Part shown: positions 9,911-14,779 of the stretch, piece after piece | How positions within the stretch are numbered: the first letter of the stretch is position 1 | Layout: every line of letters begins with the position of its first letter | Virus record (IMG/VR): IMGVR_UViG_3300012940_000074 | Coordinates: 1-31,729 of that record | DNA length: 31,729 nt | Origin: a virus | Taxonomy: Duplodnaviria; Caudoviricetes | Reading direction: 5' to 3' (one strand) | The notes under the pieces: model-generated | The model's database searches: none | What the model saw: only the letters and a program-made list of their open reading frames with translations | What the model was told of the DNA's origin: nothing | Made by a program: the position numbers and the translations under genes

Positions 9911-10981
9911 TTACGCTTCGGAGCCGTCCGAGCCGTAGGCCAGTTGCCAGAAGCCGTAACCGCCGGCAGCGCGTGCCTCGGCGCCGAACTTGAACTTCTT
10001 ACGGTTGAACACGTCGTTGGCTTGGGGATCGATCTGCTGAACGAAGACCGGCGCCTTGCGTTCCTGATAGATGAACGGCTTGACGGCCTTGGTCGTGTCG
10101 AGCAGGTACCAGGCGGTGTCGGACGTCAGGCGCGCATCCTCGACCACCTCGGCCGTGTTCTTGTACGGATTCGGCTTGCCATCTTCCAGCCGGTCGTTGG
10201 TCATCAGGGCGCGGGCGATATCACCCAGGGACGGCGGCACCAGCAGCACGTTCGGCGTGATGTTCAGCGGGCGGCCTTCGTCATCCTTGAACTTGCGCAT
10301 CGCGGTGCGCGCGGCACCATAGCTCGCCTGAGCTGCCGCAAGCGTAGCGATCGACAGTTTCTTGGTACCCTTGTTCGAGACGGAGCCGATGGTGCCGTCA
10401 GCTTGGCGCACCGGGTGATCGGTATCAATGAAGTTCTGGCCGTCGTAGCACTTTGTGGCCATTGCACCGTTCACCACGTCCATCACGATCTCGTCCGGCA
10501 ATTGCGCGGCCGACTCGCCGGCCATTTGTGCCTGCGGACCGTAGATACCGAGGTTGTCGTCCTCGATGTCGTTGCGATCGACCTCGACCGTGGCTTCGAA
10601 GTCATCATTGACGATGGTGTACTTGAAGCCCTCCAGCGCTTTGACGTGCTTTTCGCCGATCCACTTGCGCATCTTCGGAAACTTCGACAGCCAGGCGTAA
10701 TCGTTCTGGCCGGTCGTCGACACCACCTTCATGGCGATCTTGTCCCAGACCTTCGGCGCGGCGCCGAAAGCGTTGTTGAAGGTGGTTTTGAGGCTGATGA
10801 ACAGGTTGTTGAGCGTTTCCTTGTCAACGAGCAGGCCAGCCATCCCGATGGACAGCGCATGCTCGCCCGTTACCGAGGGCGGCAGGATGCCGGCAGCGGC
10901 CGGCATGGAGAAAACGCCGGCCAGCACGCCCAGGGCGATGCTGGCGACGGCGATGGCGGTGATTGCGAAGCGCGATTTCAT
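9911..10981 (-). CDS. Major capsid protein (Mu gpT family) with a hydrophobic N-terminal leader
   Basis: Core YAWLSKFPKMRKWIGEK...FEATVEVDRNDIEDDNLGIY...CYDGQNFIDTDHPV...GYGFWQLAYGS. Start at 10981 (SD AAGGA); alternative ATG at 10843. Confidence 0.93.
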   Translation of the reverse strand: MKSRFAITAIAVASIALGVLAGVFSMPAAAGILPPSVTGEHALSIGMAGLLVDKETLNNLFISLKTTFNNAFGAAPKVWDKIAMKVVSTTGQNDYAWLSKFPKMRKWIGEKHVKALEGFKYTIVNDDFEATVEVDRNDIEDDNLGIYGPQAQMAGESAAQLPDEIVMDVVNGAMATKCYDGQNFIDTDHPVRQADGTIGSVSNKGTKKLSIATLAAAQASYGAARTAMRKFKDDEGRPLNITPNVLLVPPSLGDIARALMTNDRLEDGKPNPYKNTAEVVEDARLTSDTAWYLLDTTKAVKPFIYQERKAPVFVQQIDPQANDVFNRKKFKFGAEARAAGGYGFWQLAYGSDGSEA

Positions 10982-11013
10982 GTGTGCGGTTCCTTGTGTG
11001 TTGCGATTGACGG

Positions 11014-11418
11014 TTACTCGACCCAGACGCCGTCCGTGTCGATGCCGATGACCGTGCCGGCGGGCGAACGCGTGTTCGTGCCGCTGGTTGCCGCAACCGT
11101 CTGGTCGTCGACGATGTAGCAGGTCTTGCCCAGGTCGGCCTGGTCGATTGGGTCGGCGCCCGAGTTCGCCCACTTGAAAGCCTTCTTGCGCCGCACGACG
11201 ATCGACTTGGCGCCGTTCGCGCCGTCGGTGTTGTCGACCGAGTGCTCGGCCCGACCGAGATACGTCAGCGTTGTGGCGGTCGAACCAGGCGCGGCATAGC
11301 CGGCTGCGTTGGCGACGACGATGGCGCCGGCGTAGATCACGGCGTCGGCCGCGACCGGCACCGGCAGGCATTCGCCGTCTTTGTAGGGTGTGTTGCGATC
11401 AGCAGTCAGTGCAGACAT
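11014..11418 (-). CDS. Capsid decoration / cement-like protein
   Basis: 134 aa between protease and capsid genes. ALTADRNTP...PVAA...IYAG...YIVDDQTV...GVWV; SD GGAG. Confidence 0.75.
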   Translation of the reverse strand: MSALTADRNTPYKDGECLPVPVAADAVIYAGAIVVANAAGYAAPGSTATTLTYLGRAEHSVDNTDGANGAKSIVVRRKKAFKWANSGADPIDQADLGKTCYIVDDQTVAATSGTNTRSPAGTVIGIDTDGVWVE

Positions 11419-12870: not shown

Positions 12871-13398
12871 TCAATCGAGCAGGTATTGACGTATCCGCTC
12901 CAGGATCGCCTCGGCCTCGGTCGGCGCCAGCTCGTTGCCGGCAGTGACCGGCAGGAACGGGCGCGCGGGGATGTCGCCCCAGAGGTGGGGGAACTCGCTC
13001 TTCTGACCACCGAACTGCTGCATGCGAGCATAGCGCATTGATGAGCCCAGAGTCAGCGATTCGTCAGTGGCCTCGTAGAAGATCTGGCGCGCCAGGTCGC
13101 CGGACTCGCCCTGCAGCGGCCGCTTGCCGGTTGCGAGCTTCTGGCCGCGCGCGGTGATCTTGCCGGTCTTCTTGGAGAACCCGCCGCGCTTGTTCAGATA
13201 GGCGATCAGCGTGGCCTGGGTGTTCGGCTTCCACCTGGTGCCGTCCGGCGCCGTTGCCGTCGCAAAGCGCTGCTTCGTGCGCTCGGTCATGTCTTCGCCG
13301 AGCGCGAGCAGGACCGGCTGCATGTTGTCGATGCGGTCGGCCAGCTCGCGTAACGCAGCGGCGGCGACTTCGTGCGTGGTCTCGATCGTCTTGCTCAT
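12871..13398 (-). CDS. Virion morphogenesis protein (Mu gpG-like)
   Basis: RF...APDGTRWKP, YARMQQFGG and IPARPFLP motifs. Confidence 0.9.
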   Translation of the reverse strand: MSKTIETTHEVAAAALRELADRIDNMQPVLLALGEDMTERTKQRFATATAPDGTRWKPNTQATLIAYLNKRGGFSKKTGKITARGQKLATGKRPLQGESGDLARQIFYEATDESLTLGSSMRYARMQQFGGQKSEFPHLWGDIPARPFLPVTAGNELAPTEAEAILERIRQYLLD

Positions 13399-13420
13399 GG
13401 ATTTGCCCTATACTGGAGCC

Positions 13421-13511
13421 GTGAGCGGGTGAGGCGTGGAAATTCGGAGTCCACGCTCACGGGCGGCAACGCCAAGTGCATGGAGGGACGTCCGGCCTCC
13501 CACTCGCTCAT
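13421..13511 (+). ncRNA. Putative cloverleaf/tRNA-like structured RNA convergent on gpF
   Basis: Four helices found by hand. G-U pairs and a GCAA tetraloop favour the + strand. TATACT at 13409-13414 lies 7 nt before helix 1. Confidence 0.55.
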
Positions 13512-14779
13512 TTCACTACTTCGAAGAATCCCCCCTTGATTTCCCCATCGATCGCCTCGCGCGGCACCTTGAATGCCGAGACGATCATGTTCGTCTCGCC
13601 CTTGTTTCTCTTCAGCTTGTAATCGAACTCGACGACAAGCCGGACCTCGCGGCTGTCGCCGGATGCGGCCACATAGATCAGCTTGCCGCTGCGGCGGTCG
13701 AAAAGAATCTGCAGCGGTTGTTCCAGGATCGCGGGCAGCATGCCCCACTCGTCGGCCGTCAACGCATCGCCGGCCTGCTGGTGGCGCAATGCCTTCTTGC
13801 CGATGATGAGCCTGTCCTGCACCGCGATCTCGGCCGACGCCGGCACCAGGTTCTTCTGCTCGGCCAGCCAGTCCAGCGTTTCACGGTCCATGGCGCCCAC
13901 GATGGCAACGCGCCTGCGCATGACGGGATCGGCCAGCACGTCGTCGATGAATGCACGAAAGAACGTTGCCGTCTCGGCCTGCAGAACGGGCCGCATGGCC
14001 TCGTACATGGCGGCGCCGACCGGGGCGTCGAGGCGGATCAGCTTTTCGTCGATCAGTTCCTGCAGCGATCGGGCCACATTCGCGCCTGGTGCGTAGTCGA
14101 AGCCATGATCGATGCCGACCGGCGCGCCGGTCGTCGGGTCGATCTCGCTCCATTTGCGATCGGGCGTCGTCTTTCCTGCGGCCTGGGCTTTCTCGAACTC
14201 GTTGGCGTCGACCGCCGTCACCCGGCACTGGCAGCCCCAACCATTCGGCGGGAAGTGCGCCACCCAGAAAGGATGCTCGTGGTGCAGCACCATGCCGTTC
14301 CAAGCCAGGTGCAACGGGCGCGGGTGCATGACACCATCGGAATGGACGTAGCGCCAGTACGGCCGCAGGGCCAGCAGCGCGGGATTCTTGAGCTGCTTCC
14401 AGCGGCCGGCCGCGTAGCTGGTCGACATGTTGGTCTGGTAGATCACGCGCGTGCGCCAGGCGTAGCCCGCTTGGCTGCCTTCGCCTTTCCAGCCGGTCCA
14501 GCCGTGCTTGGCCACCACCGCGTTAAATTCCTTGCGAAAGGCTTCGATGCCGGCGCCGTCTTCGATCCGGCGCGCCATTGCCCGGTGCAGGTCGTTGACC
14601 AAGTCGGCCTGGGCGGCGCCGGCGACGATGAAGGCGCGGTCGTGCGCGGCCTTCCAGATGTCGTCCCAGGCGTCGCTGGGCAGGGCCAGCTTGCGTCTGA
14701 AGAAGTCGAGCTGTTCGGCGAACGGCGTGTTCTCGTAGCCGTTCTCCGTTTTGGCCGGCGTCTGGATCGCGATCGGCAT
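13508..14779 (-). CDS. Head morphogenesis protein gpF (MuF) with a C-terminal BECR/PBECR-like extension
   Basis: MuF core (AFIVAGA...RTRVIYQTN...HLAWNG...FPPNGWGCQCRV...GFDYAPG) plus a ~150-aa tail (KKALRH...LPAILEQP...FDRRSGKLIYV...IVSAF). Confidence 0.9.
   Translation of the reverse strand: MPIAIQTPAKTENGYENTPFAEQLDFFRRKLALPSDAWDDIWKAAHDRAFIVAGAAQADLVNDLHRAMARRIEDGAGIEAFRKEFNAVVAKHGWTGWKGEGSQAGYAWRTRVIYQTNMSTSYAAGRWKQLKNPALLALRPYWRYVHSDGVMHPRPLHLAWNGMVLHHEHPFWVAHFPPNGWGCQCRVTAVDANEFEKAQAAGKTTPDRKWSEIDPTTGAPVGIDHGFDYAPGANVARSLQELIDEKLIRLDAPVGAAMYEAMRPVLQAETATFFRAFIDDVLADPVMRRRVAIVGAMDRETLDWLAEQKNLVPASAEIAVQDRLIIGKKALRHQQAGDALTADEWGMLPAILEQPLQILFDRRSGKLIYVAASGDSREVRLVVEFDYKLKRNKGETNMIVSAFKVPREAIDGEIKGGFFEVVK

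Follow-up and report, generated by a model that had tools for sequence, protein, structure and literature searches.

The window analyzed here is the whole 31,729-base stretch of a viral record rated 83% complete, and it belongs to a Mu-like phage, with Pfam matches to a transposase, a repressor, Mor, a portal, gpF, gpG, protease I, gpT and tail genes. Between the stop codon of gpF, the MuF minor head protein, and the start of gpG lies a gap of 109 nt, which holds a predicted structured RNA read from the opposite strand. The features of this module are as follows:

12871-13398, strand −: gpG (tail completion/Neck1; Pfam and phrog matches), which directly adjoins the gpF stop or overlaps it at every locus that has lost the RNA
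13409-13414, strand +: TATACT, the −10 element, with 6 nt between it and P1 and no −35 detected
13421-13511, strand +: predicted 91-nt structured RNA, class A (fold, covariation; 105 bits with covariance model R1, of which it is a training member)
13421-31/13501-11, strand +: helix P1
13433-40/13450-57, strand +: helix P2
13458-78, strand +: P3, variable
13482-86/13496-500, strand +: helix P4
13445-13494, strand +: predicted loop-loop (kissing) helix, CGGA 13445-48 (P2 loop) with UCCG 13491-94 (P4 loop), from covariation
13508-14779, strand −: gpF, 423 aa (PF04233, E 1e-11; phrog_220, E 3e-93)
13511-13960, strand −: C-terminal MuF-C/PBECR domain of gpF, residues 274-423, predicted BECR fold (Pfam, ESM Atlas, model, structure search)
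13577-13579, strand −: Ser401, last strand of the domain, invariant in A1; second residue of the PBECR His/Ser-Thr configuration
13781-13783, strand −: His333 in the KKALRH helix (helix 55-63 of the tail model), invariant in A1
14219-14593, strand −: Phage_Mu_F domain of gpF, residues 63-187 (Pfam)

With a MuF N-terminus and a variable C-terminal extension within a phage head module, gpF has the architecture of a MuF polymorphic toxin. A small immunity ORF was not found downstream of it, the gap being taken up by the RNA and the next gene being gpG. Pfam returned only Phage_Mu_F and MuF_C for gpF, with no ToxN, CptN or TenpN family, and no Ro60/TROVE family was found among the 32 translated stretches of the window that were scanned, of which three ORFs outside the listed families matched nothing. 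Elsewhere in the window, the gpT capsid ORF (9911-11371, strand −) is open for 187 codons ahead of its Pfam domain; its likely start is Met132, followed by a hydrophobic, signal-like leader of ~47 aa and then by a Mu gpT-like start.

A predicted structured RNA in the gpF-gpG gap

The original prediction placed in this gap a four-way junction of helices P1 to P4, preceded by TATACT and with its 3′ end overlapping the gpF stop, and the locus is as it described. For 13421-13511(+), the MFE and centroid structures are both the P1-P4 structure (−46.4 kcal/mol, z −3.84), 0 of 200 shuffles are as stable, and the gpF stop codon (13508-10) falls within the 3′ strand of P1. Because the minus strand of the same 91 nt is also more stable than shuffles (z −3.06), folding alone is insufficient to fix the strand. 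The G-U pairs and GNRA loop from which the strand had originally been read are only partly conserved: among 24 homologues, just 4 retain the G-U pair at the outer end of P2, and P3, with its GNRA loop, varies in length and sequence. The plus strand nevertheless stands, because of the conserved −10 element, the T-loops of related RNAs and a start site mapped in a relative in E. coli Sakai (see below).

Covariation among homologues, proposed as a check in the original prediction, was found. In 24 homologous RNAs, picked by eye from gpF-gpG gaps and aligned with MAFFT, 89.8% of cells are paired, compared with 39-45% in slid controls, and two-sided changes occur at 15 of the 27 pairs. The covariation score was reached by 0 of 500 shuffles, a control that ignores relatedness, and RNAalifold independently recovers P1, P2 and P4. 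The alignment also contains a contact that the earlier reading had missed, namely a kissing helix between the P2 and P4 loops. Its cells are 98.9% paired, with two-sided changes at two of its four pairs (G-C to A-U in 4 of the 24 sequences and A-U to C-G in 8); the loops read CGGA/UCCG in the window and CGGC/GCCG or CAGC/GCUG in others. We infer that this helix builds a tRNA-like elbow, taking the place of the D/T elbow of tRNA.

The window RNA is not itself a tRNA when judged by a cloverleaf with anticodon loop, T-loop and CCA or by tRNA models, and ARAGORN returned 0 matches for it. Rfam 15, which includes DUF3800, drum, skipping-rope, C4 and YrlA, gave no match for the window, nor for 20 homologous loci at gathering thresholds or 8 loci at E ≤ 1; a sole snoRNA match at E 7.9 was discarded as chance. 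A small protein encoded in the gap appears unlikely, as covariation and deletions follow the RNA structure. In phage B3 (L011:2761-2859), a hypothetical gene (B3ORF34) is annotated opposite the predicted RNA and may be a mis-call.

The C-terminal tail of gpF

The tail of gpF had been predicted to be PBECR-like, and Pfam, the ESM Atlas, a structural model and a structure search all point to a MuF-C/PBECR-type BECR domain. The match to PF18819 (MuF_C) has E 7.5e-4 and, at 20 bits, lies below the curated cut-off of 27.6; a homologue (L014) scores above that cut-off. Neighbours in the ESM Atlas are MuF_C, PBECR2 and PBECR3 proteins at 0.92-0.95, with a low recognition score. The tail-only model (pLDDT 96) has a helix followed by a four- to five-stranded sheet, the topology of the BECR core, and thus a predicted BECR-type fold rather than the non-nuclease fold that the original prediction had named as evidence against itself. 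BECR toxins make up most of the top 20 rows when this model is used in a VIA structure search, at low Z values: BrnT is best (Z 5.2, rmsd 3.8 over 76), followed by CdiA NC101 (Z 4.5), colicin D (Z 4.4, rmsd 3.3 over 86) and CdiA Kp342 (Z 4.2), with RelE/ParE proteins also among the neighbours. The top structural neighbours (colicin D, CdiA tRNases and BrnT/RelE; Z 4.2-5.2) are PDB entries 5znm, 5i4q, 6cp9 and 3u97. Foldseek gave no match for the tail at E ≤ 0.001, a PDB sequence search with the tail gave nothing under E 0.16, and a fold search with the full-length gpF model was uninformative.

In the available text of Iyer et al. (2017; PMC5512222), MuF-C is defined as a PBECR domain whose active configuration is a His plus a Ser/Thr, Mu gp30 is termed inactive, and RNA binding is suggested for inactive MuF-C. 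PBECRs have also been assigned to the colicin-like BECR group in a 2026 preprint (10.64898/2026.08.28.747851), the available main text of which contains no ncRNA terms. The gpF tail has the corresponding residues, His333 in the helix and Ser401 in the last strand. Many His-less tails retain the Ser/Thr, and several tails that have the RNA carry a different residue in its place; it does not track the RNA in either of the tail sets described below, and we rejected it as a correlate. His333, whose presence does track the RNA, is predicted to be an active-site or RNA-binding residue. Together, the sequence matches and the modeled fold support assignment of the tail to the MuF-C/PBECR-type BECR domains, for which RNase activity is predicted.

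Presence of the RNA follows the helix histidine

Two sets of tails were compared with their gpF-gpG gaps. The first set holds 143 distinct tails from gpF proteins of at least 390 aa. Of these, 96 group with the window tail and 32 make up a PBECR3-type cluster; the other 15 are outliers or unrelated. Among the 96, 83 have both the His and a convergent RNA, called by an R1 match or a T-arm motif (by eye or motif in L011 and L116); 12 have neither, with gaps of −17 to 31 nt; and in the remaining tail (L104) the helix is degenerate, its His is shifted and the RNA is absent. The second set holds 82 new proteins of at least 380 aa, 60 of which match the tail profile: 52 have both His and RNA (about 20 of these being close Sp18-type copies), 6 have neither, 2 have the His without the RNA and none has the RNA without the His. 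Both exceptions in this set are broken loci, one with the 3′ end of the RNA only (L216) and the other with a replaced C-terminus (L283). Across the 156 tails of the two sets, 135 have both, 18 neither, 3 the His without the RNA and 0 the RNA without the His.

In a tail tree of 56 rows (unrooted, with the His columns in the alignment), the His-less/RNA-less label changes five times, and at least three of these changes are forced by starred branches. One tail inside an RNA-bearing clade (L026) is without exactly the whole 121-nt cassette of its sister L005; at another locus (L036) the RNA persists although the tail has a deletion immediately after the His. Arg-His is conserved in all 32 PBECR3-type tails, and in the 29 for which gpG was located the gap is at least 71 nt. 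MuF-only genes (L146, L171, L173 and L174) overlap gpG, and unrelated tails on the same MuF (e.g. L135, L150 and L155) are followed by co-directional small ORFs. Occurrence of the RNA beside gpF genes without the tail, which the original prediction had set down as a refutation, was not seen: the RNA is absent beside both tail-less and His-less gpF genes.

Named phages can be sorted in the same way. B3, Pasteurella AFS-2018a, Curvibacter TJ1 and Sp18 have the His and a gap with an RNA or an RNA-like sequence, followed in Curvibacter TJ1 by a hairpin plus U-run, while Mu, JBD69, phiSHP3, Bhz63 and Klebsiella ST405 are His-less and have a gap of at most 0. Ralstonia phage YO098_1 keeps the His, does not keep the Thr and has no gap; phage RS138 has an out-of-frame tail and no gap. 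All cases of a His without an intact RNA (L104, L216, L283 and YO098_1) have a degenerate tail or a broken locus. Coupling of the RNA to the His helix of the tail is, on this comparative sequence evidence, well supported.

RNA classes, arrays and orphan copies

Different tail clades are accompanied by different RNAs. Clade B tails have RNAs with a canonical T-arm, and PBECR3 tails have a third RNA class (C). In a crude motif table, in which the B3 and Sp18 motifs are confused, tails of clade A pair with RNA A (35) or B3 (12), those of clade B with B1 (35) or B2 (7) and those of clade C with C (30). This cognate pairing is accounted for equally well by specificity and by shared inheritance of tail and RNA as one cassette. 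An A-like tail is paired with a B1 RNA at L393, and at L319 a class A RNA matches R1 with 36.8 bits beside a distant tail outside the R1 training set. The phage B3 RNA is a kissing-loop variant by eye only, with no R1 match and a different MFE structure, and the single-sequence fold z of T-loop-class relatives is weak (−0.2, −0.98). By eye, class C RNAs come in two circularly permuted motif orders (L045, L059, L066 and L136 versus L065, L130, L143 and L149).

To avoid the bias of a protein-first search, viral contigs were also scanned for exact RNA patterns. Class A gave 44 loci, of which 39 are convergent with an A/B tail, 2 lie inside another protein and 3 are orphans; class B1 gave 42, of which 40 are convergent with a MuF tail and 2 are orphans (one being the L357 array). 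In the two class A loci inside another protein (L350 and L355), the RNA (44 bits) is antisense within a phage ORF of more than 1000 aa that is not a MuF protein, directly behind a PBECR3 domain (E 2.5e-8), in a record without MuF. The L350 copy lies at 1438-1537 (strand +), and at both loci the RNA has a TTGACA...GATAAT promoter-like stretch and its antisense strand is translated as linker. Because this RNA sits behind PBECR3 without MuF, pairing follows the PBECR domain, not MuF.

Tandem non-cognate RNAs occur behind intact tails at L030, L070, L105, L120, L141 and L385. The orphans comprise two class A copies between GemA and Mor (L322, which may be a fragment); one copy near a Mu-like protease (protease I) in a 13.6-kb provirus rated complete (L327); an A+B1+A array (L357:356-652, strand +) that lies ahead of the RstB-like and G2P replication genes of a filamentous-phage-like provirus of 5.8 kb, which has no MuF or PBECR match and may be a fragment; and a B1 copy with a 30-aa tail remnant near gpT/Mor (L376). 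The L322, L327 and L357 records have no MuF or tail match. L322 (GemA/Mor/AAA), L327 and L376 are short Mu-like elements, possibly satellites. The tandem and orphan copies argue that the RNA is useful without a toxin in cis.

Short orphan C-terminal tail fragments are also found in gpF-gpG gaps, behind the RNA at L009 and before a class C RNA at L169; they resemble the silent cassettes of polymorphic toxins. Small unrelated ORFs are inserted between the RNA promoter and gpG at L034, L064, L068, L121, L153, L157 and L165, which marks this site as an insertion hot spot.

Promoter and expression

The absence of a good −35 noted originally holds in that no sigma-70 −35/−10 pair was called at the window RNA; no terminator was called directly behind P1. 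The −10 element overlaps the ribosome-binding region of gpG. Of the 83 RNA loci, 68 have a −10-like TAnnnT hexamer (at least 4 of 6 matches) in the antisense 5′ flank; for comparison, such a hexamer occurs in 7 of 83 windows placed inside gpF and in 20 of 83 on the sense strand. A terminator-like hairpin at 13577-13598 (+), 66 nt 3′ of P1 and antisense within gpF, may be due to chance, as the window has 3 terminator-like sites with 1.8 expected.

Relatives of the RNA are already annotated in E. coli Mu-like (Sp18-type) prophages, where the RefSeq 'tRNA-OTHER' feature is a member of this RNA family; at L186:1814-1893 it lies on the strand opposite gpF. The Sp18-type stretch is present in 230 of 5,426 complete E. 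coli genomes, and its RNA is often labelled 'tRNA-OTHER' in RefSeq. The dRNA-seq data for E. coli Sakai in the available supplement of Sy et al. (2020; PMC7547250) list a TEX-enriched start at 5058595(−), enrichment 14.58, uninduced, antisense to ECs4971/ECs4972. This start follows TAAAAT by 7 nt and precedes P1 of the Sp18-type RNA by 2 nt; in the same part of that supplement, no other starts with prefixes 5057, 50582-50587 or 5059 and no 3′-end entry for the Sp18 RNA were found. The supplements of Tree et al. (2014) contain no sRNA at the Sp18 F-G gap. The plus-strand transcript called for by the original prediction is therefore seen in a distant relative, the data covering that RNA and not the one in the window: the Sakai start shows transcription for a T-loop-class RNA, a different class from the window RNA.

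Proposed function of the RNA

We regard the 91-nt element as a genuine RNA that has not been catalogued before; its close coupling to PBECR domains with the His is well supported. In the literature searched, which lacked most subscription papers, we found no description of this RNA or of its pairing with the tail. We propose that the RNA is constitutively made and is probably the antitoxin (immunity RNA) of a predicted BECR RNase at the C-terminus of the virion-borne gpF. It would be transcribed from its own −10 promoter, independently of the late operon, and so be available both in the lysogen and while heads are being assembled. The coaxial P1/P4 stem and the loop-loop elbow would imitate the tRNA shape attacked by colicin-D/CdiA-like BECR enzymes and allow the RNA to occupy the His helix of the tail. 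Under this scheme, neither the producer cell nor a lysogen with the matching RNA would be harmed by gpF, and gpF delivered by the virion could act in cells without it. Decay of the His helix would make the RNA dispensable, and it would then be deleted.

This antitoxin reading is favored because the RNA fills the slot in which MuF toxins and unrelated tails have small ORFs, and because of its own promoter, its apparent mimicry of a tRNA substrate, its loss together with the His helix and the accumulation of orphans. Several points count against it. Some His-less phages might have been expected to retain an immunity RNA, but 0 of 18 do so; the intermediates that are seen run the other way, with the His and without the RNA, though their tails are degenerate or their loci broken. 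Since the RNA tracks the His helix and not the Ser/Thr, this helix could serve to bind RNA instead of forming a catalytic site. The low Z scores of the modeled tail fold and the empty Foldseek result count here too.

Alternatively, the RNA could be an obligate partner or cargo and not an inhibitor. The PBECR domain would bind (perhaps mature) it, and the complex, or the RNA itself, would be delivered, or would be retained to act as a specificity factor or as a decoy for host defences that target tRNA. Loss of either partner would then make the other useless, as fits both the 18 His-less tails and the His-bearing, RNA-less intermediates. The orphans in the inovirus-like record and in MuF-less Mu-like elements fit a toxin-independent benefit, and the RNA binding suggested for inactive MuF-C in the available text of Iyer et al. 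(2017; PMC5512222) points the same way. We nevertheless regard this alternative as unlikely: the RNA relative's own antisense promoter, not a late promoter, is active in an uninduced lysogen culture; His-less tails persist at folded length in Mu and D3112-like phages without any RNA; and no conserved variable guide segment with a target was found in the window, where the best trans-antisense match is 11 nt (E 0.49).

Regulation in cis, which the original prediction had included among its options, now appears improbable. As a type I-like antisense RNA, the element would pair with the gpF-gpG junction of the late mRNA and silence leaky gpF or tune gpG. Antisense pairing does not need a conserved kissing helix or T-loop, the class of RNA tracks the protein clade, orphan copies have no cis target, and the overlap with gpF in the window is just 4 nt, at the 3′ end. 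These observations outweigh, in our view, the opposite-strand arrangement and overlap with the gpF stop, the coding overlap of up to ~30 nt or more in L039, L073, L103 and L113, the position of the L350 RNA fully antisense within an ORF and the overlap of the −10 element with the gpG ribosome-binding region. It is more improbable still that the element acts on the sense late mRNA or as DNA (a processing site, terminator or mobile insert), with the plus-strand fold being incidental. The minus strand does fold better than shuffles, and tandem and relocated copies show that the element moves, but G-U-preserving changes and T-loops are read on the antisense strand, the RefSeq feature lies opposite gpF, an antisense start is mapped in the Sakai relative, and presence of the element follows a protein residue.

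A broader picture is possible, to which we give slightly less than an even chance: phage PBECR RNases may be a class of polymorphic toxins with RNA immunity factors. These factors would comprise several tRNA-mimic families, with T-loop, kissing-loop or circularly permuted forms. Each family would match one toxin clade and be exchanged together with it as a cassette. In giant polyvalent proteins, which leave no room for a gene, the RNA would be encoded antisense, and unrelated elements, among them an inovirus-like provirus and Mu-like satellites, would accumulate it in orphan arrays. The RNA would then be the missing partner of a widespread domain, the tail profile finding 1,207 protein clusters at 50% identity. 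RNA antitoxins would extend beyond ToxN-like folds to BECR enzymes and virion-borne toxins, and unexplained phage pseudo-tRNAs would gain a function. The role of Mu gpF-type tails becomes directly testable, as laboratory hosts have natural phages with both the His and the RNA (B3) and with neither (Mu, D3112-like).

Comparison with known systems

The top structural neighbours of the tail model, colicin D, the CdiA tRNases and BrnT/RelE, are all toxins whose known neutralizing factors are proteins (immunity or antitoxin), and tRNA is the substrate class of the colicin-D/CdiA enzymes. With the MuF polymorphic toxins, gpF shares a MuF N-terminus, an exchangeable C-terminal domain, a place in the head module of a temperate phage and an element directly downstream of the toxin-like tail. 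In the available part of Jamet et al. (2017; PMC5576092), that element is a small ORF, found downstream of 89.4% of 191 toxin genes, and proteobacterial MuF tails are assigned no known function; in the window it is an RNA, non-coding and convergent with gpF, that has a predicted promoter of its own. The PBECR/MuF-C domains (Pfam PF18819, PF18810 and PF18812) are given a predicted activity and no partner RNA in the available text of Iyer et al. (2017; PMC5512222).

Other RNAs resemble the window RNA in part. The bacterial Y RNAs (YrlA), as described in the available part of Chen et al. (2014; PMC4201824), are tRNA-mimic ncRNAs encoded beside a protein partner, in phages too; that partner is Ro60 and not a BECR protein, and the window RNA has no Rfam match and a Watson-Crick kissing helix in place of the T-loop. 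For the DUF3800, drum and skipping-rope motifs, the available part of Weinberg et al. (2017; PMC5737381) likewise describes a single protein domain associated with a number of unrelated RNA structures, which are often encoded on the opposite strand, but the protein is a different one and the window RNA matches no Rfam family at gathering or E-value thresholds. The allo-tRNAs of Mukai et al. (available part of PMC5389517) lie near TA genes and, unlike the window RNA, have anticodons.

A functional parallel may be found in the type III TA systems ToxIN, CptIN and TenpIN (as given in the available part of PMC12283969), in which, as proposed here, a structured, pseudoknotted ncRNA neutralizes a protein RNase. 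Their antitoxin consists of tandem repeats with a terminator, upstream in the toxin operon, whereas the window has a single tRNA-shaped RNA that is downstream and convergent; the toxin fold also differs, and the toxin-like domain of the window is fused to a virion protein. Judged from sequence, the RNA and tail would thus work like a type III TA pair, from outside the operon arrangement and the toxin families that define that type.
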